Part shown: piece after piece, positions 175 to 24,043 of the stretch
Layout: each line of letters opens with the position of its first letter
Numbering within the stretch: the first letter of the stretch is position 1
DNA from: Kiritimatiellota bacterium
GTDB taxonomy: Bacteria; Verrucomicrobiota; Kiritimatiellia; Kiritimatiellales; Tichowtungiaceae
Length of the DNA stretch: 25,647 nucleotides
Assembly: GCA_014381785.1 (NCBI GenBank)
Contig: JACNKZ010000074.1
Span: 1 to 25,647 of the forward strand
Direction of reading: 5' to 3'
Program-made: the position numbers and the translations under genes
Notes under the pieces: model-generated
The model's database searches: none
Seen by the model: the letters and a program-made list of their open reading frames with translations, nothing else
Told to the model about the DNA's origin: nothing

Positions 175-283
175 TTCCAAACATTGGAACCGGCGCGGTC
201 ACCGCCCGCACCTACAGATCTGTAGCCACGCACGACGGGCGCGGTTGTCCTGCCCTTGGAAAAAATTCTTCCAAACTTTGGAA
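175..283. repeat. Iterated palindrome copies (TTCCAA-N3-TTGGAA) in the comM-upstream spacer
   Basis: Perfect copies at 175-189 (ACA core) and 269-283 (ACT). A degenerate copy GTCCTGCCCTTGGAA lies at 247-261. The 14-bp palindrome CTACAGATCTGTAG at 212-225 sits between them. Confidence 0.9.
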
Positions 284-405
284 GCGAGGGGTAGGGCGAC
301 GCCTCCGGCGGAGCCGCCTTTTCAGTTCTGCGGCTCACCGGGACGGTTCGCCCCACCTTAAGAATGCGCCTTGAAAAAGGGAGGGTTTGGCTCTACAAAG
401 CGGGC

Positions 406-597
406 ATGACAACGGTAAAAGAAATCGAAAAAGCGGTTGAGCATCTTCCGCCCAAAGATTTGAACCAGTTCCGCAACTGGTTCGAGGCATTTGAGGCCGC
501 CGCATGGGATCGGCAGTTGGAGGCTGATGCCCGTAGTGGACGCCTTGACCTTCTGGCGAATGAAGCCCGCGAAGAATACAGACGAGTAATTCGCTGA
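406..597 (+). CDS. Small conserved hypothetical protein, weakly antitoxin-like (addiction-module-component style), no toxin partner nearby
   Basis: ORF 364..597. The internal ATG at 406 gives MTTVKEIEKAVEHLPPKDLNQFRNWFEAFEAAAWDRQLEADARSGRLDLLANEAREEYR. The pattern LPxxxxxxFRxWFxxF..WDxQxExD..xGxLD recalls small antitoxin-like proteins. The functional call is from memory only. Confidence 0.4.
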   Translation: MTTVKEIEKAVEHLPPKDLNQFRNWFEAFEAAAWDRQLEADARSGRLDLLANEAREEYRRVIR

Positions 598-610
598 TTG
601 ATATTCACTT

Positions 611-677
611 TTCCAACCCTTGGAAACATCCGCGTTGATCCATGTTCATCCGCGGTTAAATCTTCCGATCATTGGAA
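611..677. repeat. Iterated palindrome copies at the convergent junction of the small ORF and the helicase
   Basis: 611-625 TTCCAACCCTTGGAA (perfect) and 663-677 TTCCGATCATTGGAA (1 mismatch). Centres are 52 bp apart. Confidence 0.9.
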
Positions 678-700
678 ACCATTCGTGACGATTCGCGGTC
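628..700. repeat. 10-bp-period short tandem repeat modules downstream of the helicase
   Basis: ATCCGCGTTG/ATCCATGTTC/ATCCGCGGTT (628-657) and ATTCGTGACG/ATTCGCGGTC (681-700). Confidence 0.7.
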
Positions 701-705
701 AATCC

Positions 706-2637
706 CTAAAAAAATCCACGGTCTTTTTGCAAGAGATGCGGAGGGATTTCGTTGATGAAGCGGGAGGGCTCTAAAAAGATGATGCCGCCGTCGCGCTGGC
801 GGCGCACCTCGGGGCTGCACAGGAAGAGGTGGTCTTCGGCGCGGGTGACGGCGACGTAGAACAGCCGTCGCTCTTCGGAATCCCCCGCCTCTTCGATCGA
901 TTTGGTGCCCGGGAACATGCTCTCACACAGGAAGAGCACAAAGACCGCCTTGAACTCCAGTCCTTTGGCCTGATGAATGGTGCTGAGGCGCAGGGAGTCG
1001 GCCGGATCGGTGTCGGTTCGTGTGTCGCCCTCCGCATCGAGGTTCGAGAGCAGGGCGATTTCGCTGAGAAACGCCTCGGTGGTTTCAAATTTGGTGGTGA
1101 AGTCGATCAGTCCATCGAGATCTTCGGCGCGGTATTTGGAGTTATCAAAATTTTCTACCATGAACTCGTTGTAGAACGCCTTATTGAAACGGTAGACGAT
1201 TTCGCCGGGGTCGGCGTCGAGGGTTTCTTCGCGGTAAGCCAGAAAGACCGGCTCGATTTTTTTCCATTCGTCGCGCGCGGCGGCGGGCAGGGCGGTTTCA
1301 ACCTGCATACAGACCTCTTTGCGCTGCAGATTCACCCGTCCGCCGAGGGTTCGGAAAATTTTGAGCGAGGTCTTTTTTCCAACCTTTGGAAAAAGTTCCA
1401 ACAGACGGGTGAAGGCCAGCTCGTCGCCGGGGTTGACCAGGATCCGCAGTACGGTGCAGACGTCTTTGATGTGCGCCTGCTCGAAGAACCGGACGCCGGA
1501 GGTGACGATGTAGGGCATGGACGCGCGCGCCAGCTCCATCTGCAGTTCCATGGCGTGGAAGTGGGAGCGGTAGAGCACGCACATGTCCGAAGGGGAAATC
1601 CCTTCGCGGCGGAGCATCTGTACCTTTTCGATAATGTAGCGCGCCTGCGCACTGCCGTCGCGCAGTCCGGCGAGGACGGGATAGGCCCCTTCCGGACGGA
1701 CGGCTTTGAGTTCTTTCTGGAACTGGTCGGGATTGCCGGCAATCGCCGCGTTGGCGACCTCGAGGATTTCCGGCGTGGAGCGATAGTTGATCTGCAGCTT
1801 AAATTCGCGTGTGCCGGGATAGTGGCGTCCGAAGTCGAGAAAGTTGCGGAAGTCGGCGCCGCGCCACGAGTAGATGCTCTGGAAGTCGTCCCCCACCACC
1901 ATGATGTTCTGATGGACCTTGGCGAGCAGCTCCACCATGCGCGCCTGAATGGCGTTGGTGTCCTGATACTCATCGACAAGGATGTATTGAAACTCCTCCT
2001 GATAGAACCGCAGGATCTGTTCGTTTTGTTCGAGCAGCTTCAGGGCGTAGGAAAGGAGATCGTCGAAGTCCATCGCGTTCTGCTCTTTCTTGCGCTTCTG
2101 ATAGAGGTCGTGCACGCGGATGACATCTTCGAAGTCCACCTCGGTGTGTTCGAAGCGCTCAGCCAGCCCGTCGGCCAGATCGCCCATCTGTCCGCCGATG
2201 ACGCCGAAGATGCTTTGCAGCACCTGCGGCTTGGGAAAATGCTTTTTATCCATCTTCAGGTCGTCCGCGCAGGATCCGAGCAGCTTTTTGGAGTCGTCGG
2301 CGTCGAGGATGGCGAAGTTGTTGTCGAAGCCGACGCGCGGCGCGTGCGAGCGCAGGATGCGGTTGGCGAAGCGGTGGAATGTGCCGCTATAGCCGCTGGT
2401 GAAGGGGCGGTTGACCAGCCGTTCCGCGCGCTCAAGCATTTCGCCGGCGGCTTTGTTCGTGAAGGTCAGCAGTAGCATGTTGCGCGGGTCGAGCCCGCGC
2501 TCTTTCACCAGCCAGGCCAGACGATAGACCAGCGTGCGGGTTTTACCGGTTCCGGCCGCGGCAATGACGAGCGCCGGCCCGTCCGGAGCGGTGACGGCGG
2601 CGTACTGCTCTTCGTTGAGTTCCTTTTTGAAATTCAT
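706..2637 (-). CDS. UvrD/PcrA/Rep-family superfamily 1 ATP-dependent DNA helicase (643 aa)
   Basis: Motif I AAAGTGKT, motif II VDEYQDTN, motif III VGDDFQSIYSWRGA, NYRS, TIHQAKGLEF and YVAVTRAEDHL are all present in canonical order. Confidence 0.93.
   Translation of the reverse strand: MNFKKELNEEQYAAVTAPDGPALVIAAAGTGKTRTLVYRLAWLVKERGLDPRNMLLLTFTNKAAGEMLERAERLVNRPFTSGYSGTFHRFANRILRSHAPRVGFDNNFAILDADDSKKLLGSCADDLKMDKKHFPKPQVLQSIFGVIGGQMGDLADGLAERFEHTEVDFEDVIRVHDLYQKRKKEQNAMDFDDLLSYALKLLEQNEQILRFYQEEFQYILVDEYQDTNAIQARMVELLAKVHQNIMVVGDDFQSIYSWRGADFRNFLDFGRHYPGTREFKLQINYRSTPEILEVANAAIAGNPDQFQKELKAVRPEGAYPVLAGLRDGSAQARYIIEKVQMLRREGISPSDMCVLYRSHFHAMELQMELARASMPYIVTSGVRFFEQAHIKDVCTVLRILVNPGDELAFTRLLELFPKVGKKTSLKIFRTLGGRVNLQRKEVCMQVETALPAAARDEWKKIEPVFLAYREETLDADPGEIVYRFNKAFYNEFMVENFDNSKYRAEDLDGLIDFTTKFETTEAFLSEIALLSNLDAEGDTRTDTDPADSLRLSTIHQAKGLEFKAVFVLFLCESMFPGTKSIEEAGDSEERRLFYVAVTRAEDHLFLCSPEVRRQRDGGIIFLEPSRFINEIPPHLLQKDRGFF
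1377..1391. repeat. Iterated palindrome copy inside the helicase CDS
   Basis: TTTTTTCCAACCTTTGGAAAAAG, perfect with T/A-run flanks. Translated on the minus strand as FPKVGKK. Confidence 0.9.
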
Positions 2638-2741
2638 AGACCGCCGATTAAATCACGGCCGGTTGACGGGGGAAACTTTAAACTACTGAGTGAAAAGTCC
2701 CATACCTCTACAGGTACGGGATAATAATATTTATAATCATC

Positions 2742-2770
2742 TTGTGTTTATATAGTTATGAAAATATATC
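2742..2770 (+). promoter_or_regulatory. Candidate sigma70-like promoter in the AT-rich spacer upstream of the ArsR-like gene
   Basis: TTGTGT (2742-2747), 17-nt spacer, TATATC (2765-2770). It lies in a very AT-rich stretch (about 2700-2790) within otherwise GC-rich DNA. GGAGG at 2795-2799 follows, 5 nt before the ATG at 2805. The match is weak and many alternatives exist. Confidence 0.3.
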
Positions 2771-2804
2771 TCTGATGGTTTTAGCTTAAGCAATGGAGGT
2801 TGTT

Positions 2805-3350
2805 ATGGAACTGCGAAGAGGCCTTTGGAAAACGTGCCGAGTGATTGCTTCGGAAACCCGGTTGAAGATGTTGTGGTATCTTTTTGCAGAAGGGGAGTTA
2901 ACGGTGATGGAGTGCAGCCAGTTTATGAGATTGTCGCCGTCGAACACGAGCTTCCAGCTGAAGATGCTGCGCGAGTGCGGTCTGGTCATTTCGCGTCGGG
3001 AAAAGATGGAGGTATTTTGCCGGGCGGAGGCGAACAGCGCGGTGGAGTTTGCACCAGAGGTTCTGGAGGCGCTGAGGAGATGTCATGAGTTGGGTGTTTC
3101 TTTCAAAACATTGATTCGTCACGCGACAGCTTTTACTCATGAGCGACGGATCGAAATTTTGCGGGCACTGCGCGGGAGGTCATTGTCGGCGTTGGCGTTG
3201 CGGGATGCGACGGGAATGTCATCCTCTGCATTCTGTCGCCATCTGGATAAGCTAATACGGCGGGGTTACGTGAGGAATCTCGACAGGTCGTGTCGCATTG
3301 GGATCCCAGCGAATACGTTGGGCCGGACGCTGTTAAAGCTGGCGACTTGA
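2805..3350 (+). CDS. ArsR/SmtB-like transcriptional regulator with two tandem winged-HTH domains
   Basis: ORF 2793..3350. Start 2805 is preferred because of GGAGG 5 nt upstream. There are two ArsR-type segments. The first is RVIASETRLKMLWYLFAEGELTVMECSQFMRLSPSNTSFQLKMLRECGLVISRRE. The second is AFTHERRIEILRALRGRSLSALALRDATGMSSSAFCRHLDKLIRRGYV. GC content is visibly lower than in neighbouring genes. Confidence 0.7.
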   Translation: MELRRGLWKTCRVIASETRLKMLWYLFAEGELTVMECSQFMRLSPSNTSFQLKMLRECGLVISRREKMEVFCRAEANSAVEFAPEVLEALRRCHELGVSFKTLIRHATAFTHERRIEILRALRGRSLSALALRDATGMSSSAFCRHLDKLIRRGYVRNLDRSCRIGIPANTLGRTLLKLAT

Positions 3351-3364
3351 TAGGCGAGTTGTTT

Positions 3365-3462
3365 TTCCAATGCTTGGAAAAAAGACTGAGGCTAAAAATT
3401 TTTGAGCACCTGTTTTTCCAATGTTTGGAAGCAGGGATCGGTTATTTTTCCAAACATTGGAA
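3365..3462. repeat. Cluster of three perfect iterated palindromes between the ArsR-like and yihY 3' ends
   Basis: 3365-3379 (TGC), 3416-3430 (TGT), 3448-3462 (ACA). Centre spacings are 51 and 32 bp. Confidence 0.95.
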
Positions 3463-4687
3463 AATCGGCGGCCAGACCGAGCGCGGTGGGTGCGGTGCCG
3501 TCGTCGAGAATCGCGTCGGTGATGTCGCGGGCGGTGATGTTGAGCGGGTTGCGCAGCAGCGTGTAGCAGGAGGGGTTTTCGGCCGATTCCGCCACTAACC
3601 CGGCTTGCGCCAGCGTATGGATGACGTCGTTGATGAGGCGAATGGGGATTCGGTTTTCTATTCCGTAGGCGATGGTGTCGAACGGCGGTTCGGGAGACTC
3701 AAATTTGTCGGTGATTTTTTTCATGAGCGCGACGGCGAGGCAGAGGCGGGCGCGGGCGCTGGGCGTGACGGCGAGGCGTTCGCGGGCATAGGTGCCGGCG
3801 TTCTGAACCGAGAAGGCGACCTCCGCGCCCATCAGCAGAATCATCCAGCTCATCTGAACCCAGAAGAGGAAAATCGGGATGGCGGCCAGGGCCCCGTAGA
3901 TTTTGTTGTATTTGCTGACGCCGACGCCGAGTTTGATGATGCCGTACTGGAAGGCGATAGAGAGCAGCGCGGCGATGAATGCGCCGGTGAAGGCGGCGGA
4001 GAAGTTGACTTTGGTGTTGGGTAGAAAGAGATAAACGATGCTGAACGCGATCGCCATTGTGAAGACTGGGACCAGCTGCAGACCGATTTTCAAGAGGGGG
4101 CCCATCCATTCCAGTCGGCTGGCGAAGCCCATGATCACCGGCTGTCCGGAGGTGGCGACGATCATCAGAATTGGCGCCGCGACCATGATGACGATGTAGT
4201 TGCGGATTTTATCGATCAGGGTGCGCGATGTTTTTACTCCCCAGACCATATTGAATGTTTCTTCGATATTGCTGAGCATTTTGATGGCGATCCACAGGAA
4301 GAGGATGGTGCCGATCGAGCCGAGAGCTCCGGCGCTGGCTGATTCCACGGTGGTAATGATGTTGGTAATTGCCTGTTGGAAGGCGTCGGGCATTCCTGCT
4401 GTTTTTTCGAGCAGCATCTCACTCGCCCTTTCAAAGCCGAGTCCTTTGGCGATGGCGAAGAGAATGACGAGAAAGGGGACAAGCGCCATGACGGAAATAA
4501 AGGTGAGGGCCGAGGCGTGGATGGGGCACTTGTCTTCCTTGAAGCCTTTGATCACGAGCATACACACGCGCAGGAATTTGAGGCCGGCGGCGCGCGCTTT
4601 GGTCAGGGATGTCGGTTCCAACTCCCACAGGCCCTGTGAGAGAAAGGTTTTAATTGTGTCGCCGATTTCGCCTGCTTTTTTTTTCAT
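3392..4687 (-). CDS. YihY/virulence factor BrkB family inner-membrane protein with C-terminal soluble extension
   Basis: Start MKKKAGEIGDTIKTF at 4687, because the ORF-track start at 4762 adds an implausible leader. It has multiple TM segments and the family-typical ASALTFISVMALVPFLV. The last ~24 codons (3392-3465) are read through two copies of the iterated palindrome. Confidence 0.8.
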   Translation of the reverse strand: MKKKAGEIGDTIKTFLSQGLWELEPTSLTKARAAGLKFLRVCMLVIKGFKEDKCPIHASALTFISVMALVPFLVILFAIAKGLGFERASEMLLEKTAGMPDAFQQAITNIITTVESASAGALGSIGTILFLWIAIKMLSNIEETFNMVWGVKTSRTLIDKIRNYIVIMVAAPILMIVATSGQPVIMGFASRLEWMGPLLKIGLQLVPVFTMAIAFSIVYLFLPNTKVNFSAAFTGAFIAALLSIAFQYGIIKLGVGVSKYNKIYGALAAIPIFLFWVQMSWMILLMGAEVAFSVQNAGTYARERLAVTPSARARLCLAVALMKKITDKFESPEPPFDTIAYGIENRIPIRLINDVIHTLAQAGLVAESAENPSCYTLLRNPLNITARDITDAILDDGTAPTALGLAADFPMFGKITDPCFQTLEKQVLKNF

Positions 4688-4812
4688 CTTCGCTCTCCTT
4701 GTCCGCTGAGGGCACCATAAAGAGCTTCCGGTCGGAAATAAAACCCAAAAACAGGGTTTCACCGAAAGGGGGAGTGTGGCTTAATCGCGCCTCGTTTTCA
4801 GAAAGGAAAAAA

Positions 4813-5190: not shown

Positions 5191-5209
5191 AACGCCCCGT
5201 TGCTTCGCG

Positions 5210-5243
5210 AAAACCGCCTCCAAATCTGGGGCGGTTTTTTTTT
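5210..5243 (+). terminator. Rho-independent terminator after the 4813..5190 gene
   Basis: AAAACCGCC - loop - GGCGGTTTTTTTTT. GC-rich stem 5213-5218 / 5230-5235 followed by a 9-T run. Confidence 0.8.
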
Positions 5244-5895: not shown

Positions 5896-6438
5896 TTATT
5901 TGGCTGTAAGTAGATTTTTGTTCTGCACAAAGTAGTGCCAGCCGCTCCAGATGGAGAGCGCGGTGACGAACAGCCCGCCCCACCAGAGGATCGTACCGCA
6001 TTTGTCCAAACAGTGGAAAACGCCGGCGAACAGAACAACGAGGATGAAGACCATCTGCCAGATGGTCTTGTGTTTCCCCCAGATGCCCGCAGCCAGCACG
6101 ATGCCTTTGTCGGCGGCGAGCAGCCGCAGACCGGTCACCATAAATTCACGGGAGAGAATCAGCGTGACCATCCAGGCGGGCATAACCCCCAACTCGATAA
6201 ACCCGATGAAGGCGGCGGCGGTCAGGACTTTGTCGGCCAGCGGATCCATCAGCTTGCCGAAATCGGTGCAGCCGTAAACGGTCCGGGCGAGGTGCCCGTC
6301 AAGCGCGTCGGTGAGCGCGGCGAGCGCAAAAACCACCAGCGCCAGAATCATGGAGCCGGGGAAGGTGATGCTGAGGCAGACCATTAAAAGAGCGGCCATG
6401 CCGAAACGGCTGAGGGTAAGAATGTTGGGTGGGTTCAT
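5896..6438 (-). CDS. pgsA: CDP-diacylglycerol--glycerol-3-phosphate 3-phosphatidyltransferase (CDP-alcohol phosphatidyltransferase family)
   Basis: CDP-alcohol motif DALDGHLARTVYGCTDFGKLMDPLADKV (D-G-x2-A-R-x8-G-x3-D-x3-D). 180 aa with multiple TM segments. Confidence 0.88.
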   Translation of the reverse strand: MNPPNILTLSRFGMAALLMVCLSITFPGSMILALVVFALAALTDALDGHLARTVYGCTDFGKLMDPLADKVLTAAAFIGFIELGVMPAWMVTLILSREFMVTGLRLLAADKGIVLAAGIWGKHKTIWQMVFILVVLFAGVFHCLDKCGTILWWGGLFVTALSIWSGWHYFVQNKNLLTAK

Positions 6439-9546: not shown

Positions 9547-10374
9547 TTAAGCTCTTCTGCATTTGAAAATAACAACCACCGGAATGCGGGCGAGCTGGTC
9601 GTACAGCGCGCGCCAGCCTTTGCTGTCGTAGGGAACCTTTTCGAGGATCTCCTTTTTGCTCATGTCGGGGATCGGCAGGGGGGCGGGTTCGAGCAGTCGC
9701 TCAATGACCAATCCGGCGTTATATATCCATTCGGCAATCTGTGAAATCGGCCAGGTTTGCGCGGCGTTCATGGTTTTGTCGTCCATCGACATGCGCACAT
9801 CGGCTTCGAGTTGAAAATAGTCGGGCAGGAAGACGCCGTCCTCCCCGTCGCCGATGTCGAGCCATTCTCCGGCGTAGAGCGGATGGCCGGTGGTCAGCAA
9901 CAGCGTGCCGCCGAGCTTGAGCATTGCGGCGCAGTCGGAGATCACCTTGGCCGGGTCGGCTGAGAACGGTAATGCGTAAGAGGAATGAATGAGGTCGAAG
10001 GAAGCAGGCTCCCACGCTCCCTCTTGCAATGAGTCCATCGAAACGCAGCGGAAATCGACGTTGACGTTTTCTTTGGCGGCCAGCTTGCGGCCGTGCGCGA
10101 GCTGTTCTTCAGAAATATCGATGGCGACACACTGCGCACCCTGCTTGGCCAGAAAGATGGAGTTCTGCCCCGCGCCGCAGCCGATTTCCAAACATTGGAA
10201 AATTCCGCCGGAATTTTTTCCAATGTTTGGAAGGAGTTCAAGCTGCGAATCGCCGGGCAGGAGCGGGCCGTAGTGGAAGTCGCTGGTGGAGATGCGGGTC
10301 TCTTTCTGATAGAGCTCCGCGATGTCGTTCCAGTAGCGCGCGCTGCTTGCGTCGGTGTTGCCATTAAATTGCAT
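9547..10374 (-). CDS. Class I SAM-dependent methyltransferase
   Basis: Motif I LEIGCGAGQN and the Methyltransf_11/25-like layout. Start MQFNGNTD at 10374. The ORF-track extension to 10533 reads through repeat DNA (SNVWK). Confidence 0.82.
   Translation of the reverse strand: MQFNGNTDASSARYWNDIAELYQKETRISTSDFHYGPLLPGDSQLELLPNIGKNSGGIFQCLEIGCGAGQNSIFLAKQGAQCVAIDISEEQLAHGRKLAAKENVNVDFRCVSMDSLQEGAWEPASFDLIHSSYALPFSADPAKVISDCAAMLKLGGTLLLTTGHPLYAGEWLDIGDGEDGVFLPDYFQLEADVRMSMDDKTMNAAQTWPISQIAEWIYNAGLVIERLLEPAPLPIPDMSKKEILEKVPYDSKGWRALYDQLARIPVVVIFKCRRA
10186..10232. repeat. 47-bp near-perfect composite palindrome (two iterated palindromes plus palindromic spacer) inside the methyltransferase CDS
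   Basis: TTCCAAACATTGGAA-AATTCCGCCGGAATTTT-TTCCAATGTTTGGAA, translated as PNIGKNSGGIFQCLE. Confidence 0.95.
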
Positions 10375-10384
10375 GTGGAAAATT

Positions 10385-10470
10385 TTCCAGACATTGGAAC
10401 CGGAAAGCAAGCCGCAACACGGCCGGAGGAGGAAATCATCCAAACCCCAGGGCTTTTCCACCCGTTGGAG
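10385..10470. repeat. Iterated palindrome copies in the methyltransferase/ferritin divergent spacer
   Basis: 10385-10399 TTCCAGACATTGGAA (1 mismatch) lies 10 nt upstream of the methyltransferase ATG. 10456-10470 TTCCACCCGTTGGAG has 2 mismatches. Confidence 0.8.
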
Positions 10471-10553: not shown

Positions 10554-11063
10554 ATGGGAAGTCGTGGAATCTCAATCGTCGGAATGGATGTCAACGAGCT
10601 GGTGACTATCCTCAACAAAGCACTCAGTGATGAGTGGCTGGCCCACTATCAGTATTGGGTGGGCTCCAAGGTAGTGGCCGGGCCGATGAAGGACGCGGTG
10701 ATTGCCGAGCTGGTTCAGCACGCTGCGGAGGAGATGGGACACGCGGAGCTGCTTTCCACCCGAATTATTCAGCTGGGCGGCACGCCGGTGTTAACTCCGG
10801 AGCAGTGGTTTAAGTCGACCACCTGCGGTTATGACGCGCCGGAAGATCCGTTTGTGCAGGCGGTGCTGCAGCAGAACATCAAAGGCGAGCAGTGCGCGAT
10901 TGGGGTGTACGACCAGTTGATGAAGCTGACGAAAGATGCGGACCCGGTCACCTATAACATGGCCCTGCAGATTCTTGAGCAGGAAGTGGAGCATGAGCAG
11001 GATCTTCAGGATTTACTGGATGACCTCAAAATAATGCTCAGCCGCTGCCACATGAGCGAATAA
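10554..11063 (+). CDS. Ferritin-like (Dps/bacterioferritin superfamily) protein
   Basis: ATG at 10554 is preceded by AGAGGAGG. Di-iron style helices are present: LSDEWLAHYQYW, HAAEEMGHAELL, EQEVEHEQDL. Confidence 0.75.
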   Translation: MGSRGISIVGMDVNELVTILNKALSDEWLAHYQYWVGSKVVAGPMKDAVIAELVQHAAEEMGHAELLSTRIIQLGGTPVLTPEQWFKSTTCGYDAPEDPFVQAVLQQNIKGEQCAIGVYDQLMKLTKDADPVTYNMALQILEQEVEHEQDLQDLLDDLKIMLSRCHMSE

Positions 11064-11680: not shown

Positions 11681-12967
11681 TTATGAGTGATCGCGGGAGA
11701 CTAGCAGGAACACTTTATCCTGTCGACGGGCTTTGGCGGTAAGCGCCCCGGCAGCAGAGCGCAGCTCGCTACAGGGCAGGCGCAGGGTGACCATGTCTCC
11801 GGGGTTTGCCGCGTCGGTGGGTTCGCCGTCGACGCGCAGGTTTTCGGCGGTGAAGCGAACGGCGCCGGTGGTCGGGCCTTCAATCAGCAGCTGGTCGCCC
11901 GGCTGAATGGTGTGTTTGATCAGTTTGAACTCTGCCACGTTGAGGTTGGCAAAAAAGTTGGAGACGGTTCCGATCTGGTCGCGCGTTTCGGTCGCCTGAG
12001 AATGGGAGTTACCCGACCATTCGCCGAGCGGTTTGCCGCAGTAGTAGCCGCCGTGCCAGAAGCCGCGGTTGAAGACCTTACTCAGTTCGTCAATCCATGG
12101 CTGGCAAGTTGACGGATCGTAGGTTCCGGCGGCGAGGGCGTCGAGCGCTTCGCGGTAGACGCGGGTGGTGACGGCCACGTAGTCGGCGGTGCGCGCGCGG
12201 CCCTCCAGCTTGAGCACGGAAATGCCGGCGACGGAAATTTTGTCGAGGTATTGAACGGTGCAGAGATCTTTGGGTGACATGATGTGTTTGTTATCGATCA
12301 CCAGTTCTTCGCCGGTTTCCTCGTCGGTGACGCGGTAGCTGCGGCGGCAGGTCTGCAGGCAGGCGCCGCGGTTGGCGGAGTGGTTGTTCTGCGCCAGACT
12401 CATGTAGCACTTGCCGCTGACGGCGACGCACAGCGCGCCGTGGCCGAACAGTTCGAGCCGGACCGGTTCGCCGGACGGGCCGCGCACATCGTGCTCCTGC
12501 ACTTTTTTATAAATAGTGGAAATCTGGTCAAGCGTCAGCTCGCGTGCGAGCACGACGGTGTCGGCCCAGCGCGAATAAAATTCCAAGGCTTGGAAATTGG
12601 CGACATTGGCCTGCACGGAGATATGCACTTCGAGGCCGAGTGAGCGGGCGGTTTCGATGGTGGCGATGTCGGTGGCGATGACGGCGGAAACGCCGGCGGC
12701 TTTGGCGGACTCGCACAGCGACTGCATCTCTTGCATCTCGTTGTCGTAGATGATGGTGTTGAGCGCGAGGTAGCTTTTTACGCCCGCTTCGCGGCAGCGC
12801 GCGGCGATGCTCGGCAGATCGTCCGCGGTGAAATCGGCTGAGCGCGCCCGCATATTGAGTTTGCCGACGCCGAAATAGACCGAGTCCGCGCCGGCGTCAA
12901 TGGCGGCGCTCAGCGCCGCCTGCGATCCGGCCGGAGCCATCAGTTCAATTTTTGATTGGTTGCTCAT
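11681..12967 (-). CDS. Peptidase U32 family protein (collagenase-like / RlhA-TrhP-type)
   Basis: N-terminus MSNQSKIELMAPAGSQAALSAAIDAGADSVYFG is the canonical U32 start. The rest matches U32 layout (ELFGHGALCVAVSGKCYMS). The ORF-track extension to 13309 is rejected. Confidence 0.88.
   Translation of the reverse strand: MSNQSKIELMAPAGSQAALSAAIDAGADSVYFGVGKLNMRARSADFTADDLPSIAARCREAGVKSYLALNTIIYDNEMQEMQSLCESAKAAGVSAVIATDIATIETARSLGLEVHISVQANVANFQALEFYSRWADTVVLARELTLDQISTIYKKVQEHDVRGPSGEPVRLELFGHGALCVAVSGKCYMSLAQNNHSANRGACLQTCRRSYRVTDEETGEELVIDNKHIMSPKDLCTVQYLDKISVAGISVLKLEGRARTADYVAVTTRVYREALDALAAGTYDPSTCQPWIDELSKVFNRGFWHGGYYCGKPLGEWSGNSHSQATETRDQIGTVSNFFANLNVAEFKLIKHTIQPGDQLLIEGPTTGAVRFTAENLRVDGEPTDAANPGDMVTLRLPCSELRSAAGALTAKARRQDKVFLLVSRDHS
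12581..12595. repeat. Iterated palindrome copy inside the U32 peptidase CDS
   Basis: AAAATTCCAAGGCTTGGAAATT, perfect. Translated as FQALE. Confidence 0.85.
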
Positions 12968-12981: not shown

Positions 12982-12996
12982 TTCCAATGTTTGGAT
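12982..12996. repeat. Iterated palindrome copy centred in the 42-bp U32/tspO divergent spacer
   Basis: TTCCAATGTTTGGAT (1 mismatch). It lies 14 nt from the U32 ATG and 13 nt from the tspO ATG. Confidence 0.85.
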
Positions 12997-13528: not shown

Positions 13529-14281
13529 ATGTCTGAAAATACAAAACCTGAGTGGACGCCCGAGCTGGACAAAGAAAACTCCTCTGCCGTCTGGGCGCAT
13601 GTGGTTCCCTTCCTCGCCTGGCTGCTAATGATGTCGCTGCTCGGCGATCCGTCCGGAACCCATTATGCGATCCAGACCGTCGGCGGACTTATTCTTCTTT
13701 TGGCGTTTCGTCCGTGGCGCTGGTATGAGCGCCCGAAGCTCAGCAGCCTGCCGCTGGCCATCGCCGTCGGCGTGCTGGTGTTTGTGTTTTGGGTCGGCCT
13801 TGAATCGGAATTTTTCAAAAGCGCACTGCCGGGCGTCAGCACCTTCTACGAAAAATATTTTGTCGACCTGATTCATTTCGGAACCCTGCGCGAACCGTTG
13901 GAGCTGGGTGAAAACGGATTGTATCACTACGACCCGCGCACCACCGGCTGGCCGCTGTTCTGGGTGCACATGCTCGGCACCACCCTGGTCATCGGCGCGA
14001 TTGAGGAGTTTATGTTCCGCGGCTTCCTCTATCGCTGGATGCAGGGCAGTCCCTTTTTCAAAAAAGATATCGGTGTGATGAACCCGCTGATGTGCATCCT
14101 CGTTGCCATCATTTTCGCCCTCGAACACAATGAGTGGCTGATGGGCTTCCTGTGCGGGCTGATGTTCACCTGGGTGATCGTGAGAACGAAGGACATCTGG
14201 GCGGGCATTTTCGCCCACGCACTCACCAACGGCCTGCTCGGCTGGTACGCCGTCCATACCGGCGCCTACTGGTTCTGGTGA
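13529..14281 (+). CDS. CPBP-family (CAAX-protease-like) intramembrane glutamic endopeptidase
   Basis: EEFMFRGFLY and FALEH motifs plus a C-terminal FAHALTN in a polytopic membrane protein. Start MSENTKPEW at 13529 is preferred over the TTG at 13478. Confidence 0.8.
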   Translation: MSENTKPEWTPELDKENSSAVWAHVVPFLAWLLMMSLLGDPSGTHYAIQTVGGLILLLAFRPWRWYERPKLSSLPLAIAVGVLVFVFWVGLESEFFKSALPGVSTFYEKYFVDLIHFGTLREPLELGENGLYHYDPRTTGWPLFWVHMLGTTLVIGAIEEFMFRGFLYRWMQGSPFFKKDIGVMNPLMCILVAIIFALEHNEWLMGFLCGLMFTWVIVRTKDIWAGIFAHALTNGLLGWYAVHTGAYWFW

Positions 14282-18004: not shown

Positions 18005-18050
18005 TTCCAAAGGTTGGAAGATTTTTACCGTAAAGTTTCGAGCCTTGGAA
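18005..18050. repeat. Iterated palindrome pair between thiE and the S41 peptidase gene
   Basis: 18005-18019 TTCCAAAGGTTGGAA (perfect) lies 12 nt upstream of the S41 ATG. 18036-18050 TTTCGAGCCTTGGAA has 2 mismatches. Centres are 31 bp apart. Confidence 0.85.
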
Positions 18051-18081
18051 GCCATAGCATGGCGGCAAGCGGGTTTTTCTG

Positions 18082-18720: not shown

Positions 18721-18821
18721 ACAGGTTTTGTTGACCGTGAAAAGCGTCCGAAAGCGAAGCGACAGATAATTTGCGAATGCAAATAATGAACGAAGTGAAT
18801 GATTCAAAATCGTAAAGGTAG

Positions 18822-18888: not shown

Positions 18889-19987
18889 ACCTATAAGCCG
18901 CATCCCAGTTTTTAAAGACGGGTTCCAGTTTGCGTTCGCGGAGCATGGTGCAAAAGGTCGTCACGTCGCGGTTGTCGTTCACGTCGAACTGTCCTTCGTC
19001 GGAGCCTACATCTCCATAGCCGCCGACGGTGGTTTTACTGGCAACACTCATCTTATTGCATCCGAGCCCGGCCATGCCGTCGCGGAAGGCGGCAGACTCG
19101 CGGGTGGAGAGCACCAGCGGGACATCGGGCAGGCAGATGCGGAAGGCGAAGACAAACTGCGCGAGCTGCTGTTCTGAAACCGGATGCGGGGCGGTAAAGC
19201 CCCCCGCTTCGTTCTGGATGCGCGGGAAGGAGATGCTTAAGCCCGCCTGCCACCGGGTTTTCTGCAGGTGGCGCACATGCCGGTAGAGCGCGAGCAGGTC
19301 AAACTGCGGATCGGCCAGCCCGAGCAGTGCGCCGAGCCCGGCGAAGCGCAGGCCGCCGCCCAGTGCGCGGCCGGGCGCATCGATCCGTTCGAGCATTTCA
19401 CTTTTCGGCCCCCAGCGGTGCATCTGCTGATAGGTCTGCGGGTGATAGGTTTCCTGATAGAGCGTCACGCCGGTGCAGCCCGCTTCGGCGAGCTGCCCGT
19501 ACTCTTTTTCAGACATTGGAAAAACCTCGATGGTGACCTTGTGGAAATGGTTCGCGGCCAGCTCAACACATTTCAAAACGTAATCGAAGTCTGCCTGCGG
19601 TGTGCGTTCGCCGGTCAGCAGCAGGATTTCTTCCAGCCCCATTTTTTTGAGCGCGGCCAGTTCGGTTTCAACCTGATCGAAGGAGAGCTTGTGGCGTTCG
19701 GTGTCGCGATCGGACGCAAATCCGCAGTAGGCGCAACCGCCGGGGCAGAAGCTCGATAGATAGAGCGGAACGTAGAGCTGGATGGTGCGGCCGAAGTGGC
19801 GGCGCGTCAGTGCCTGCGCGCGCGCGGCCATGGGTTCGATGAAGTCCGCGGCGGCGGGGGAAAGCAGCGCGGCCAGCGTCTTTTCGTCCGGCGACTCCGC
19901 GCCGAGGGCGCGTTGAACCTCCGCAGCCGAAAAGATGCGGTTCAGCCACGGGGACGGGTCGAGCCAAGTAGGGAGAGAGTTGCTCAT
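18887..19987 (-). CDS. thiH: 2-iminoacetate synthase ThiH (radical SAM)
   Basis: [10 protein letters not shown] radical-SAM cluster motif, ThiH-length protein, and position between thiG and thiE. ATGA overlap with the thiG stop. Confidence 0.88.
19507..19521. repeat. Degenerate iterated palindrome inside thiH
   Basis: TTTTTCAGACATTGGAAAAA keeps the T/A-run flanks. It has 2 mismatches to consensus and 1 to the 10385 copy. Translated as FPMSEK. Confidence 0.6.
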
Positions 19988-20793: not shown

Positions 20794-20794
20794 A

Positions 20795-20989
20795 TCAGCC
20801 TCCTCCCACAAAGGTGAGCACTTCGACGCTGTCGCCGTCGCTGAATTTAAAATTGTTCCAATCCTTGGAAAAAACGAGATCGCCGTTGACGGTGATCGCG
20901 GTGTATTCGGGGTTGGCGCCGAGTTCGGAGAGCAGGGCGGCGATGGTGCCGGCGTGTTCGTGGCTTTCGCCGTTAACTGTCAGATTCAT
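20795..20989 (-). CDS. thiS: Sulfur-carrier protein ThiS
   Basis: 64 aa, [11 protein letters not shown]..., ends in GG (FVGGG). AGGAGA SD. First gene after the TPP riboswitch. Confidence 0.88.
20856..20870. repeat. Iterated palindrome copy inside thiS
   Basis: TTCCAATCCTTGGAAAAAA, perfect. Translated on the minus strand as SKDWN. Confidence 0.85.
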
Positions 20990-21052
20990 AAAATCTCCTA
21001 TTTTATGAATGGAGTACTGGAGTGGGGGATTGTTGGATGGGTGGGTAACCCT

Positions 21053-21080
21053 TTCCATTAATCCTGTATTCCATTAATCC
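21053..21080. repeat. Direct 12-bp repeat (TTCCATTAATCC, 16-bp period) in the thiS leader downstream of the riboswitch terminator
   Basis: Copies at 21053-21064 and 21069-21080, enclosed by the complementary GGATGG.../...CCCATCC segments. Confidence 0.7.
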
Positions 21081-21103
21081 ATCCATCCGCGTTCTTCATG
21101 AAC

Positions 21104-21138
21104 GCAAAAAACTCCCGGCGCAGACGACGGGAGTTTTT
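21104..21138 (-). terminator. Intrinsic terminator forming the expression platform of the TPP riboswitch
   Basis: On the minus strand, ACTCCCG-N10-CGGGAGT is followed by TTTTTT. The 5' arm ACUCCC can alternatively pair with the GGGAGU of the aptamer's closing helix (anti-terminator logic). Confidence 0.8.
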
Positions 21139-21140
21139 AA

Positions 21141-21226
21141 CGTCACTCCCTTTCGCCGGTACTAACCGGATCAGGTTCTGCGGGTATTATCTCAGCGCTC
21201 CAAAAAAGAGGCACCCCGGGAACAGG
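21141..21226 (-). promoter_or_regulatory. TPP (THI-box) riboswitch aptamer
   Basis: Minus strand reads GGGGUGCC...GCGCUGAGAUAAUACCCGCAGAACCUGAUCCGGUUAGUACCGGCGAAAGGGAG. It contains the conserved CUGAGA, ACCC and AACCUGAUCCGG...CCGGCG..AGGGA elements of the TPP riboswitch. It lies upstream of thiS. Confidence 0.9.
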
Positions 21227-21333
21227 CTTGAGAGGATGCCAAGGTGGGGTGGAAAAGCATAGATCAAAAAAGCGCTTATTTTGTGTTGCGCCGTTCGCTC
21301 CGTTTGTTATCTTGCTCGCTCGCTTTTGCCGAT

Positions 21334-21408
21334 GGCCCCATCGTTCAGCGGTTAGGACTCCAGGTTTTCATCCTGGCAACACGGGTTCGATTCCCGTTGG
21401 GGTCACCA
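21334..21408 (+). tRNA. tRNA-Glu (anticodon UUC), CCA encoded
   Basis: GGCCCCATCGTTCAGCGGTTAGGACTCCAGGTTTTCATCCTGGCAACACGGGTTCGATTCCCGTTGGGGTCACCA. Acceptor stem GGCCCCA/TGGGGTC, anticodon stem CCAGG/CCTGG with loop TTTTCAT, T-arm CGGGTTCGATTCCCG. Confidence 0.93.
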
Positions 21409-21580
21409 TTCGACGCGCTCGTTTCACTCGCTTGCTCATGGCAGGCCATTCGACCCTCAATTCATCAGCAGGATATCGTTTTATCTTGGCGCGGCGAATG
21501 TCCCGGATCCGTCCCGCGTACAGCTGAACGAAGTTTTTTGCACCATTTGGCAGGAATGGGAAATTTTGTGTGATGTCAAA

Positions 21581-21652
21581 AAAGTGGAGCAGACACTCCT
21601 GTCTGCTCATCCCTGCGAGCCAGAAAAGGGCAGACAGGAGCGTCTGCCCCAC
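21581..21652. repeat. Inverted pair of GC-rich REP-like hairpins, same family as 18822-18888
   Basis: AAAGTGGAGCAGACActccTGTCTGCTC (21581-21608) and GGGCAGACaggagcGTCTGCCCCAC (21628-21652). The AAAGTGG/CCCAC flanks and CAGAC/GTCTG stems parallel the thiH-thiE element. Confidence 0.7.
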
Positions 21653-21654
21653 AT

Positions 21655-21690
21655 AACAAAAAAGCCGCCCCTTTCGGAGCGGCTTTTTTT
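21655..21690. terminator. Bidirectional intrinsic terminator (fabI on minus strand, tRNA-Glu transcript on plus strand)
   Basis: AAAAAAGCCGCCCCTTTCGGAGCGGCTTTTTTT. GC-rich stem flanked by an A-run and a T-run. Confidence 0.8.
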
Positions 21691-21759
21691 GACCTGCATA
21701 GCCCGCTGGCGACGCAGGTTTCAGGGGTTGCCTGCCCCGAGCGGAGTCGAAGGGGAAGC

Positions 21760-22650
21760 TTATTTTTCGCTCTCGTGCGAGGCTTTCAGTTCCCGCATCC
21801 GCTCCAGGCGTTCCTTGGCGGCTTGCTTCCGCTTGGCGGGCATGGATTTGATCGGCCGCTCTCTGGGAAGCAGTTCGCCTCCGACCACCGAGGCGCCGCC
21901 ATCCACATAGAGGGTCTGGCCGGTGATTTTTTTGGAGCCTTCACCCAGCAGGAAAACCACAGCATGAGCGACTTCTTTTTTGTCGTTGATGACATCCCAC
22001 GGCAGCGGGCTCATTTTTTTCCAGACGCGCGCCAGATGGGCGAAGTGCGGGATGGATTTCGCGGCCTTGGTGGCCAGCGGGCCGGCGGAGACCGCATTGA
22101 CGCGGACGTGCTCGCGGCCGTATTCACGGGCCAGCGCACGCACCAGCGCTTCGAGGGCGGCTTTGTTGACGCCCATCCAGTTGTAGAAGGGGAAGGCAAC
22201 CTGCGAGGCGAACGAGAGAGTTACGACCGATCCGCCTTTATGCATGTGCTCCTGCCCGAAATGGGCAACCGTCGCCAGTGAGGCGCAGCTGATGTGGAAG
22301 CCCTGTTTAATGTCCTCAACCGCATTGGTGTAAATGCTGTCACCCAGGCAGGTCTTCGGGTTGGCAAAGCCGATGGAGTGAACCACGCCGTAGATTTCGC
22401 CGATCCCGTTGAATAGGTTGCGGACTTCGTTTTCGACAGTGACATCACAGTAGCGGATGTCCATCTCATCTTTAACTTCCTGGGGGAGGTCGGTGCAGCC
22501 GCGGTCGAAAAAGATCTTTTTCAGCCGTTCGTTCTGCACCGTGTAAATTACTTTTCCGCCGAGATCTTCAATCATCTTCCCGGTGGCGTAGGCGATGGAG
22601 TCTGTATTCAGAAGCCCCATCACGACATAGGTTCCGCCTTTTTTAATCAT
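21760..22650 (-). CDS. fabI: Enoyl-[acyl-carrier-protein] reductase, FabI-like SDR with basic C-terminal tail
   Basis: GLLNTDSIAYATG N-terminal fold, the FabI-type Y-x6-K (YNWMGVNKAALE), and VNAVSAGPLATKAAKSI. It carries an extra Lys/Arg/Glu-rich tail of about 35 aa. Confidence 0.82.
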   Translation of the reverse strand: MIKKGGTYVVMGLLNTDSIAYATGKMIEDLGGKVIYTVQNERLKKIFFDRGCTDLPQEVKDEMDIRYCDVTVENEVRNLFNGIGEIYGVVHSIGFANPKTCLGDSIYTNAVEDIKQGFHISCASLATVAHFGQEHMHKGGSVVTLSFASQVAFPFYNWMGVNKAALEALVRALAREYGREHVRVNAVSAGPLATKAAKSIPHFAHLARVWKKMSPLPWDVINDKKEVAHAVVFLLGEGSKKITGQTLYVDGGASVVGGELLPRERPIKSMPAKRKQAAKERLERMRELKASHESEK

Positions 22651-22739
22651 CGCTGTTCCTTTCGCCGCCGAACAGGCGGTTTGGATTTAAAAGCGCCGGA
22701 CAATGCCAGACTCGCTGTGAAAAAAAAGCCTTTTGTTGC

Positions 22740-23807
22740 TTAAAAATCGACCCGAAGGAGCGGACAGGAGCTGAAGCGGGCTTCTTGAACCGTATTCAGC
22801 AGGCCGATCTGCACGCCTTCCAGGCGCGAACAGTGGTTAATTAGGCCGATCTGTACGCCGTGTACGCTCTGGGCGTGGTTGTAAAGGACAGAGGCCTGCA
22901 CCCCTCTGGCATGTTCGAACACATAATTCCACAGAAGGGAGCCCTGCAGCCCGTTGAGCGAGCCCGCCATGGTACTGGCAATCCCGAGCTGAACGCCGTC
23001 GGCTTCGCCGATTACATTCGCCGCGATTCCGGCCAGCTGAAGCCCGCTGTTCATTTCGCCGGCTTCCGCTAAAATCAGGGAGCCTTGAAGCAGGCCGTTG
23101 CCTTCCAGTTCGGACTTCGCCATTAGGCCGCCGAGCTGGATGCCTTGGGTGCGCTTGGACCGTGCGGTCAGTCCGCCAAGCTGAATGCCGCGCAGATCGC
23201 GCGCCTGGGCAAACAGCAGAGCTAGCTGAATGCCGTTGGCGTCGAGTTCTGCCTCGCTAAAGATTCCGCCGAGCTGGATGCCGCCCAGATTTTCCGCGCG
23301 GGCCTCGTAGAGACCGGCTTGCAGGCCGTTCATCCGGGCGTTGTTTTCTACCGATTGCGACAGGGCGGAAAGCCCTCCAATTTGAAACCCGTTAACACCA
23401 CGCGCTTTGCCGAGCAGGCCGGTTAGCTGCATGCCGGCTACATCTTCTGCATCGGTTGTGACCGTGGCGAACTGGAAGCCGCCCACGTTTTTGGTTCCAC
23501 TGCTCCAGCCGGCGATTTGAATTCCGCCAAAATGATAGGTTTCTGCGCGATAGAGCGCCAGCTGCAGCCCGCCGGCGTCTTCTGAAGCATTCCAGAATCC
23601 GAGGTCGATCCCGTACATATAGCGGTTATCCACAAAATAGCAGTTCAAGCGAAGGCCGTGCACGCCGTACTCTTCCGGGAAGAGGTAGTGAGCTTCATCG
23701 ACCCCCAGTTGGAACGGGGTGCTTACGTGGGTGATGGTTTCTTCAGCCGGTATCGCTGCAAAAACAGAGGATGCCGCCAGCACGAGAAGAAGGAGCGTCT
23801 TTTTCAT
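22740..23807 (-). CDS. Secreted/surface repeat protein with about 19 G-[IVLFM]-Q-[LIFA]-[GA] units
   Basis: Signal peptide MKKTLLLLVLAASSVFA. Motifs GGLQLAL, GGIQIAG, GGFQFAT, NGFQIGG, GGIQLGG, RGIQLGG, QGIQLGG, DGVQLGI, HGVQIGL, EGVQIGL etc. then recur every 16-22 aa. Function unknown. Confidence 0.75.
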   Translation of the reverse strand: MKKTLLLLVLAASSVFAAIPAEETITHVSTPFQLGVDEAHYLFPEEYGVHGLRLNCYFVDNRYMYGIDLGFWNASEDAGGLQLALYRAETYHFGGIQIAGWSSGTKNVGGFQFATVTTDAEDVAGMQLTGLLGKARGVNGFQIGGLSALSQSVENNARMNGLQAGLYEARAENLGGIQLGGIFSEAELDANGIQLALLFAQARDLRGIQLGGLTARSKRTQGIQLGGLMAKSELEGNGLLQGSLILAEAGEMNSGLQLAGIAANVIGEADGVQLGIASTMAGSLNGLQGSLLWNYVFEHARGVQASVLYNHAQSVHGVQIGLINHCSRLEGVQIGLLNTVQEARFSSCPLLRVDF

Positions 23808-23880
23808 AATAACGGTTTCTATCACGCTCTCCGTGTGCCCACCAAGCCAAACCTTGAGTGAAGCGCTGTGGATTTCGGGG

Positions 23881-24043
23881 TTCCAAGGGTTGGGCTCTGC
23901 GTTGCCAGAGGGCGATGCAGGTCAAGAAAAGAAAAGGAGCCGCCATGCTATGGCTTCCAATGTCTGGAAAAAATGTGCTAGCTTCGCTCCGGATTTTTCC
24001 AAGGGCTGGAAAAAAAGGTATGAAATTTTTCCAATGGTTGGAA
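23881..24043. repeat. Array of four iterated palindromes in the repeat-protein/nadB divergent spacer
   Basis: 23881-23895 TTCCAAGGGTTGGGC (2 mismatches). 23955-23969 TTCCAATGTCTGGAA (1). 23997-24011 TTCCAAGGGCTGGAA (1). 24029-24043 TTCCAATGGTTGGAA (perfect, 11 nt before the nadB ATG). Confidence 0.9.

Follow-up and report, generated by a model that had tools for sequence, protein, structure and literature searches.

A 15-19 bp perfect palindrome, ttTTCCAA-nnn-TTGGAAaa, recurs throughout a 25,647-nt contig of a Kiritimatiellota bacterium (assembly GCA_014381785.1, contig JACNKZ010000074.1; this whole stretch is called the window below), and the motif, whose unit was defined from the window copies together with those of relatives, is lineage-wide in Kiritimatiellota. 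Its copies share one anatomy with strict dyad symmetry, lie in helical phase with their neighbours and hold orthologous positions in related genomes. With moderate confidence, we favour the explanation that the motif provides phased binding sites for an abundant dimeric DNA-binding protein, a putative architectural or global regulator; that a protein is the agent, that it oligomerizes and what its binding would do are suggested by the arrangement of the sites. A protein operator on duplex DNA, which was among the options listed in an original prediction made for the window, is now preferred to mobility, uptake signalling or an RNA hairpin because of the helical-turn arrays, the unrelated linkers, the dyad symmetry and the positional conservation. 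The original prediction knew of no described element with this sequence, and a literature search (sequence notations, Kiritimatiellota palindromes, and HIP-type elements in Verrucomicrobia, with most subscription journals outside its coverage) likewise found no published description, so the motif appears to be undescribed so far.

The abundance of the motif was assessed by searching for the core TTCCAA-N3-TTGGAA, with expectations taken from dinucleotide-preserving shuffles of the window. This recovered 13 perfect copies, where 0.01 would be expected, 18 copies with at most one mismatch (five with exactly one; 0.09 expected) and 25 with at most two mismatches (seven with exactly two; 1.25 expected). 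Every coordinate of the 13 perfect copies predicted originally was found again, as were the five predicted one-mismatch copies (663, 10385, 12982, 23955, and 23997) and the five two-mismatch ones, but two further two-mismatch matches, at 1546 and 8088, had been overlooked; these are probably chance or coding-driven matches and not genuine members. The GC content, assumed to be about 60%, was measured as 57%, which leaves the conclusion unaffected. Most window copies do carry the 5' T-run and 3' A-run described for them, and 10 of 23 have an ACA or TGT centre, as counted before; the regular 31/32/42-bp spacing of neighbours and the restriction of the central base to G or C had escaped notice. 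Chance or composition as the source of the copies is ruled out by the shuffle and Markov expectations. None of the outcomes that the original prediction named as refuting it was observed: the motif exceeds its expected frequency about 1000-fold, numerous related genomes have it, and it does not belong to any catalogued insertion sequence or miniature inverted-repeat transposable element (MITE). The earlier view of a palindrome iterated across genome and lineage, in spacers as well as genes, and not of an intergenic-only repeat, is thus supported.

The distribution of the motif was examined by scanning one genome per species for TTTCCAANNNTTGGAAA, which gave at least 119 stretches with matches, the taxonomic range obtained being a lower bound. 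More than half of the listed stretches were labelled Kiritimatiellales, Pontiella/Pontiellaceae, Tichowtungia, 'Kiritimatiellae', or 'Lentisphaerae'/'Verrucomicrobiota' metagenome-assembled genomes (MAGs), the labels being used as given, with GC contents of 51-69%. Among the matches listed, those of Kiritimatiellota type came from isolates as well as MAGs, many with several contigs per MAG and several copies per 8 kb, and other taxa contributed single matches only, mostly in AT-rich genomes, as chance predicts. A viral scan also gave only single chance matches on viral contigs, and a phage-borne element was rejected on this ground. For an unselected sample, seven loci were fetched via their proteins and not via the motif (L001 and L125, both belonging to the complete Tichowtungia genome, and L002, L122, L123, L126, and L127); together with the window they comprise 162.6 kb and contain 61 perfect copies (0.375 per kb, or one in every 2-3 kb). 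Extrapolation from samples of 20-40 kb gives about 500 to 2000 exact sites per genome. A more distant locus (L124; GC 46%, TsaD 74% identical) had one perfect and three one-mismatch copies, all in genes.

The fine anatomy of the site is strikingly uniform. In the 162.6 kb, no TTCCAA/TTGGAA pair was found with any spacer of 0 to 20 other than N3, and the hexamers outside full sites occurred at Markov expectation. Among 159 perfect copies, the central base was C in 51% and G in 45%, and base frequencies beside the centre and in the flanks were mirror images of each other, which together define the site as a dyad of 15-19 bp with a G:C pair at its centre; the flank signal is partly imposed by the search pattern, and the flanks are also seen in the window's own copies. 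In one-mismatch copies, position 6/10 holds most changes, mainly A>G and T>C, and positions 4/12 and 2/14 are almost invariant, an uneven tolerance such as would be expected for base-specific contacts. Centre triplets are genome-specific (TCA/TGA in 13/13 copies of CAIVKH01 and GCC/GGC in 10/17 of CAISWQ01), with ACA/TGT found in 7/11 copies of L126 and 5/13 of the window. A resemblance to the DnaA box (TTTTCCAAA vs TTWTNCACA) was considered and dropped, as position 8 is invariantly A and the site is palindromic.

Many copies belong to arrays, in which spacing follows the helical repeat of DNA. Between neighbouring copies with at most one mismatch, spacings of 31 bp (41 times), 32 bp (29), 42 bp (six), 21/22 bp (five), and 30 bp (two) were observed, and larger ones fell at 52/53, 63, 74, 85, and 94/95 bp. 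The strongest period in the unselected loci was 10.4-10.5 bp (resultant length 0.91 for spacings up to 130 bp, n = 36, p ~1e-13), and it persisted when the 30-33 bp class was removed (0.90, n = 23). The 16/17-nt linkers at 78 array junctions have unrelated cores and are alike only in bearing terminal runs, of A on one side and of T on the opposite side; equal linker length without shared sequence speaks for a geometric constraint and against descent from one repeat unit. Arrays of three to seven units are common. The longest, with seven units spaced 31/42/31/42/42/42 bp (L078, 6781-7025), precedes a type I restriction HsdS-like gene in an apparent defence/toxin-antitoxin island of a Tichowtungia MAG. 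The window itself has arrays at 3365/3416/3448, 10186/10218, 18005/18036, and 23881/23955/23997/24029. GC-rich hairpins were discarded as a general trait of the 42-bp linkers, only about half of which have one. A CRISPR array (repeats of 23-55 bp, spacers of 21-72 bp, cas genes) was likewise rejected, since the units are 31-42 bp in total and occur in 2-7 copies scattered over hundreds of loci; no cas gene was present among the called genes of the examined loci.

The possibility that the motif acts in RNA, as a hairpin UUUUCCAA-nSn-UUGGAAAA in 5' untranslated regions, intercistronic regions, and 3' ends that would affect mRNA stability or translation (e.g., by masking a GGA-type ribosome-binding site), is considered very unlikely. 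The 19-mer does fold, at -5.1 kcal/mol, and two oppositely oriented units with complementary centres pair over 18 bp (-24.6 kcal/mol for 3408-3470); in several cases the proximal copy stops 9-18 nt short of a start codon, and many copies begin 0-30 nt after stops. Double G...C changes at positions 6/10 also occurred seven times vs about two expected (p = 0.003), a weak covariation that could be explained by a hairpin, a cruciform, or a tolerated R/Y position. However, the statistics carry no sign of selection on the transcript. Sense-strand centre triplets of copies in open reading frames (ORFs) were as frequent as their complements (ACA 11 vs TGT 10, GCC 10 vs GGC 9), so that the loop lacks strand asymmetry; its middle base is S on either strand; A·C-creating single variants were as common as G·U-compatible ones (22 vs 20), and a hand count of same-strand spacer copies gave 4 vs 3. 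Moreover, a 10.5-bp spacing period is a property of duplex DNA. No match to the motif was found in the window with Rfam 15 at the gathering score, where only the tRNA-Glu and a thiamine pyrophosphate (TPP) riboswitch were detected, and membership of an Rfam RNA family was therefore rejected. An intrinsic terminator was rejected as well, because a 5' T-run and 3' A-run have the wrong polarity, the six-pair core has two G-C pairs, and the fold reaches only -5.1 kcal/mol; a terminator scan caught a single copy, via its flank. Across the window, terminator-like hairpins in general were barely above shuffled expectation.

With regard to genomic location (own gene calls for the window, supplied ones for the seven fetched loci), 50 of the 102 copies with at most one mismatch lie inside called genes (0.35 per kb of 144.2 kb) and 52 in spacers (2.8 per kb of 18.4 kb), an approximately 8-fold higher density between genes. 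Tandem spacers have 24 copies in 7.9 kb (3.0 per kb), divergent spacers 22 in 7.1 kb (3.1 per kb), and convergent spacers six in 3.0 kb (2.0 per kb). In many cases an array takes up nearly the whole of a short spacer, the copies beginning 0-30 nt after the stop codon and ending 9-18 nt before the next start. A general fixed distance to start codons was rejected, as a global scan gave no peak, and a proximal copy at 9-18 nt exists only in a subset of genes (ctpA, nadB-like, U32, methyltransferase, gidA, and hexokinase). The genes behind arrays are functionally unrelated and include those for a sulfatase, an ABC ATPase, YggS, an MreC-like protein, PyrE, GidA, BipA, CtpA, and HsdS. Within ORFs, the three reading frames are used 45, 42, and 38 times; a peptide-coding motif (the n-region of a signal peptide, prompted by L042 and L057) was rejected because of this equal usage and because most copies are non-coding. 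In the GC-rich relatives L042 (4083-4159), L057 (1670-1808), and L071 (2697-2847), arrays overlap the predicted 5' ends of secreted-protein ORFs, which indicates that gene callers may extend N-termini through arrays; the three frames of the array unit read FQTLEK, FPNIGK, and FSKHWK.

The dominant arrangement of adjacent copies, TTGGAA-N16/17-TTCCAA, has the geometry of -35 and -10 elements, and the arrays might accordingly be read as tandem bidirectional core promoters for a lineage-specific sigma factor. Many unrelated housekeeping genes are preceded by arrays, and promoters of Escherichia coli consensus are barely above shuffled expectation in the window. Such a role nevertheless seems hardly probable: TTCCAA does not contain the key -11A and -7T of the -10 element, arrays also occur within genes and, at similar density, in convergent spacers, and the dyad symmetry of the unit, the isolated single copies, and the 21/22 and 42 bp spacings would be left unexplained. 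Besides, the tRNA-Glu gene (21334-21408) has an ordinary sigma-70-like promoter candidate, TTGCGC-16 nt-TATCTT (21286-21313, plus strand), 20 nt upstream.

Orthologous copies provide evidence of positional conservation. Upstream of ctpA, the window, L002, L122, and L123 each have one copy ending 11-12 nt from the ATG and another at 43 nt, and L001 keeps the distal one; with their arms kept and their centres differing (CCT, CCT, TGT, TGG), these copies show the signature of purifying selection acting on the arms. The window and L123 share the array before the nadB-like gene, the window and L126 the copies before the U32 peptidase gene, and L001 and L122 those before hexokinase. In addition, two to four genomes have copies inside genes at matching codons (uvrD +1246, thiS +125, methyltransferase +142/+174, U32 +372, pgsA +420, and the pair in the BrkB tail). 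L126 and L127 have the uvrD copy at 1377 unchanged and in the same place, and L126 also preserves the three-copy arrangement 3365/3416/3448 (10615/10665/10697). No part of thiS is better conserved than the block GTT TTT TCC AAG GAT TGG AA, in which four genomes retain T at three synonymous positions; about 70% of third positions in the window ORFs are G or C.

Comparison of relatives also reveals how units are gained. Exactly 42 bp (14 codons) are inserted in frame at the centre of the methyltransferase copy in L126 relative to the window, creating a third unit, and the tilS gene of L001 has a homologous 42-bp in-frame insertion relative to that of L122. The 42-bp unit reads TTGGAAaa-N-GGGTG[C/G]AGGCTCAGCCT[G/C]C-TTCCAA. 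Its inserted linker, GGGTG[C/G]AGGCTCAGCCT[G/C]C, forms a small palindrome of its own, the hairpin of which carries a compensatory C/G change, and also lies between motif copies in spacers of L078, L002, and L125. Tandem duplications of 62 bp are visible in arrays of L057 and L090, and the uvrD-comM spacer measures 23 bp in L126 (7879-7901) vs 619 bp with four copies in the window (87-705). Taken together, the 42-bp indels, the 62-bp duplications, and the genome-specific centres indicate that arrays grow by unit gain and that copies are homogenized within genomes. The original prediction had argued for copying from a 19/20 match between 174-193 and 10384-10403; the match is correct, but as evidence of copying it is weak, because only five bases are added beyond the core, whereas the 42-bp in-frame indels are real evidence of local unit gain.

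These events raise the question of a selfish or mobile palindromic repeat that would spread through copy-and-paste or by inserting itself into copies already present, any function for the host being secondary or lacking. Besides the in-frame units, the duplications, the genome-specific centres, and the expanded uvrD-comM spacer, the equal density across spacer types would suit such an element. It is nonetheless judged unlikely, since the common 31/32-bp units are conserved no further than about 19 bp, no target-site duplication was seen, and a perfect palindrome would offer a transposase no polarity. Furthermore, one and the same sequence is used throughout the class at GC contents from 51% to 69%, unlike species-specific repeats, orthologous positions are held with conserved arms and free centres, and pure mobility leaves the 10.5-bp phasing with unrelated linkers unexplained. 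Mobility may, however, coexist with host function. Repetitive extragenic palindromes and the bacterial interspersed mosaic elements built from them (REP/BIME, including REPINs, in Enterobacteria and Pseudomonas) resemble the motif in being short palindromic units present in hundreds to thousands, often just after stop codons, and forming modular arrays in spacers; they are bound by the host proteins IHF and gyrase. They differ in that their palindromes are imperfect and have polarity, lie almost exclusively outside genes, are particular to a species, and depend on RAYT transposases, and BIME linkers are conserved, whereas half of the copies described here are coding, their arms are symmetric, their linkers are unrelated, and the sequence is conserved across a class. 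No RAYT (Y1 transposase) gene was present among the called genes of nine loci. A MITE was rejected because nothing is conserved beyond about 19 bp in most copies; only the minor 42-bp unit has a conserved interior, and the centre triplets flanking it are not identical (ACC vs ACA). This unit is reminiscent of Rickettsia palindromic elements, which are also palindromic in-frame insertions in coding genes, as in methyltransferase and tilS, but those elements are 100-150 bp long, are neither arrayed nor phased, and have no 15-bp operator-like core.

A further explanation is a self-DNA recognition signal used in transformation, recombination, or a methylation-dependent process, similar to the DNA uptake sequences of Neisseria (DUS), the uptake signal sequences of Pasteurellaceae (USS), or the highly iterated palindrome HIP1 of cyanobacteria, to which the original prediction had likened the motif. 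The analogy fits the abundance and the coding copies: the motif occurs at about 0.4 per kb in both coding and non-coding DNA of one lineage, an over-representation of the DUS/USS kind, is lineage-wide, and is accommodated in coding sequence via compatible codons, and DUS and USS are likewise family-wide at about 0.5-1 copy per kb with compatible codons in their coding copies. It misses key features of the anatomy. DUS and USS are asymmetric 9-12-mers recognized by competence proteins and are not known to form helically phased tandem arrays; the 8-fold intergenic enrichment exceeds that known for USS, and a conserved position relative to start codons is unexpected for an uptake tag. Neither a competence receptor nor a cognate methyltransferase turned up here, the product of the motif-bearing methyltransferase gene (9547-10374) being a generic class I S-adenosylmethionine (SAM) enzyme by Pfam. 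HIP1 (GCGATCGC) is, according to the literature on it, also a hyper-abundant palindrome of one phylum, found in coding and non-coding DNA, with conserved orthologous copies and a function that long remained unknown, and papers report selection for it and a role in transformation. HIP1, however, is a GC-rich 8-mer that overlaps methyltransferase sites and is not known for 31/32-bp helically phased arrays, whereas the motif has 15-19 bp with a 3-bp centre and is enriched between genes. A self-DNA signal is considered improbable. As a kind of element, the motif is intermediate among HIP1, REP/BIME, uptake sequences, and operator arrays, and matches none of them on the defining features tested.

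We return to the proposed binding sites for a dimeric protein. Two features of operator arrays were found, namely a dyad with fixed half-site spacing and neighbours at whole helical turns, and a dimeric protein that reads duplex DNA is suggested by the strict dyad, the unique half-site spacing, the uneven tolerance, the indifference to strand, and the 10.5-bp phasing with unrelated linkers. Such a protein would bind as a symmetric dimer to TTCCAA half-sites whose centres are 9 bp apart, with the dyad on a G:C pair, and adjacent dimers would touch along one face of the helix, placing sites two, three, or four turns apart. Thousands of such sites would fill every type of spacer at about 3 per kb and would be tolerated or selected in coding sequence at about 0.35 per kb. 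That the sites are so numerous and exact, and are present in all spacers and in genes, suggests an architectural, nucleoid-associated, or very global regulator more than a local transcription factor, and an array abutting a start codon, with copies ending 9-18 nt before the ATG, probably also modulates that gene.

Several observations weigh against this explanation. The similar density in all three spacer types indicates no exclusive tie to promoters, the 6/10 covariation would also suit a hairpin, and the genome-specific centres, like the 42-bp unit indels, suggest copying or homogenization rather than independent selection. To our knowledge, about 0.4 perfect copies per kb is far above any known regulon, and the sites are more exact than those typical of nucleoid proteins. 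In addition, no candidate for the cognate protein was found among the DNA-binding proteins examined in the fetched loci. A single-chain tandem winged-helix protein of about 182 aa (ArsR/HTH_5 + HTH_20; window 2793-3350, plus strand) appears unlikely to be the binder, because its gene is not consistently accompanied by copies (none lie near it in L125 and L127) and its two recognition helices are dissimilar. The family of this protein comprises 104 clusters that are seemingly confined to Kiritimatiellales-type genomes and share invariant ATAFTHERRI and RHLxKL segments; the window protein has a 100% identical counterpart in a MAG labelled 'Kiritimatiellales bacterium', and its gene is divergent from uvrD in the window, L126, and L127. 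A tblastn search of the fetched loci with the tandem winged-helix protein and E. coli Lrp (an approximate query) gave nothing further.

Known systems offer analogies to the proposed protein-bound arrays, not assignments. The operators of Lrp/AsnC-type octamers (pap, gltBDF, and the Ss-LrpB promoter) and LysR-type tetramers are also odd-length dyads of 13-15 bp that are promoter-adjacent and lie two to four turns apart on one face of the DNA, but they are degenerate and number tens to hundreds per genome, whereas the motif is near-perfect, occurs in thousands, and is found in all spacer types and in genes; the loci examined revealed no Lrp- or LysR-type gene with a link to the motif. The sopC locus of F (12 units of 43 bp, each with a 16-bp palindrome) similarly consists of whole-turn tandem units with dimer-bound palindromes, from which the protein then spreads or oligomerizes. 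It differs as a single locus with a conserved unit sequence, compared with thousands of short chromosome-wide arrays with unrelated linkers. A bolder version of the protein-binding explanation, which we put forward only tentatively, is that Kiritimatiellota possess their own sequence-directed chromatin-like system, in which a lineage-specific protein on thousands of near-perfect phased palindromes, which fill the intergenic spaces and persist even within genes in spite of codon preference, would form positioned nucleoprotein arrays at gene boundaries, organize the chromosome and limit transcription. We know of no bacterial nucleoid protein that relies on so exact and hyper-abundant a site.

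By Pfam annotation, the window is an ordinary chromosomal segment with genes for comM/yifB, uvrD, the tandem winged-helix regulator, brkB/yihY, pgsA, rodZ-like, ftsK, a SAM methyltransferase, dps, and U32 peptidase, followed by phnA, tsaD, ctpA, thiE-H-G-S behind a TPP riboswitch, tRNA-Glu, fabI, and a nadB/frdA-like flavoprotein. Its TsaD is 87% identical to that of Tichowtungia aerotolerans, and the other best matches are to Kiritimatiellales or 'Verrucomicrobiota' MAGs. The copies and the composite unit are listed in the table below.

Table. Copies of the palindrome in the window and occurrences of the 42-bp composite unit in relatives
Feature	Position	Location and remarks
Perfect, centre ACA	175..189	Intergenic, 88 nt upstream of comM/yifB-like start (ATG 86, minus)
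Perfect, centre ACT	269..283	comM-side spacer holding copy 175; 94 bp (9 turns) from copy 175; extra TTGGAA half-site nearby at 255-260
Perfect, centre CCC	611..625	Spacer downstream of uvrD stop (706)
One mismatch	663..677	28 nt past uvrD stop; 52 bp (5 turns) from copy 611
Perfect	1377..1391	Inside uvrD, 1246 nt from start; encodes L-F-P-K-V-G-K
Perfect	3365..3379	Convergent spacer, 14 nt after tandem winged-helix stop; unit 1 of 3-copy array
Perfect, centre TGT	3416..3430	Last 24 codons of BrkB/YihY ORF; 51 bp from copy 3365
Perfect, centre ACA	3448..3462	32 bp from copy 3416
Two mismatches	6004..6018	pgsA, 420 nt from start; decayed ortholog of perfect L126 copy 13554
Perfect	10186..10200	SAM-methyltransferase coding sequence, 174 nt from start; encodes FQCLE just before motif I (IGCGAG)
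Perfect	10218..10232	Methyltransferase coding sequence, 142 nt from start; encodes LPNIGK; 32 bp from copy 10186
One mismatch	10385..10399	10 nt upstream of methyltransferase ATG (10374, minus); divergent spacer shared with dps
Two mismatches	10456..10470	50 nt upstream of dps ATG (10521)
Perfect	12581..12595	U32 peptidase coding sequence, 372 nt from start; ortholog in L126 (19839)
One mismatch	12982..12996	14 nt upstream of U32 ATG (12967, minus); orthologous to L126 20235/20265
Perfect	18005..18019	Ends 12 nt before ctpA ATG (17992, minus)
Two mismatches	18036..18050	Distal ctpA copy, 43 nt from ATG; 31 bp from copy 18005
Two mismatches	19507..19521	Inside thiH; may be chance
Perfect	20856..20870	thiS, 125 nt from start; encodes F-S-K-D-W
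Two mismatches	23881..23895	Unit 1 of array in divergent spacer upstream of nadB/frdA-like gene
One mismatch	23955..23969	74 bp (7 turns) from copy 23881; GCCGCCATGCTATGGC directly before it
One mismatch	23997..24011	42 bp (4 turns) from copy 23955
Perfect	24029..24043	32 bp from copy 23997; ends 11 nt before FAD flavoprotein gene ATG (24055)
42-bp composite unit	L126 17848-17936; L001 11862-11950; L078 6969-7025; L002 ~10880-10930; L125 1551-1607, ~14030-14080	

A second recurrent 16-mer, GCCGCCATGCTATGGC, contains the palindrome GCCAT-N3-ATGGC and occurs in the window at 23939-23954 (plus) and 18051-18066 (minus), directly 5' of a motif copy before both the nadB-like gene and ctpA. It is kept in relatives (L122 8588, L123 3961 minus, and L126 1210 minus) and could be another operator or a promoter element, its TGCTATGGC part resembling an extended -10. 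The TPP riboswitch (Rfam RF00059, 60 bits; 21130-21228, minus) lies upstream of thiS-G-H-E, and its leader has no motif copy, the copy at +125 being within thiS. The uvrD-comM spacer of the window additionally contains a 63-codon ORF (406-597, plus) with no family assignment.

If the extrapolation holds, a single word of 15-19 bp would account for about 1000-2000 exact sites per genome across the class and for a large share of its intergenic DNA. The class consists of polysaccharide degraders of environmental and gut relevance. Molecular genetics hardly exists for the phylum, and the motif may offer a route into its gene boundaries and regulation. A defined oligonucleotide, TTTTCCAATGATTGGAAAA, whose sites are already mapped, would be a direct handle to fish out the putative major DNA-binding protein. 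The motif may also serve as a signature for binning Kiritimatiellota contigs and as a caveat for gene callers, given the arrays that overlap ORF ends. More generally, it adds a new case to the question of why lineages carry hyper-abundant palindromes such as HIP1, REP, and DUS, one in which phasing and positional conservation make a protein-scaffold model testable.

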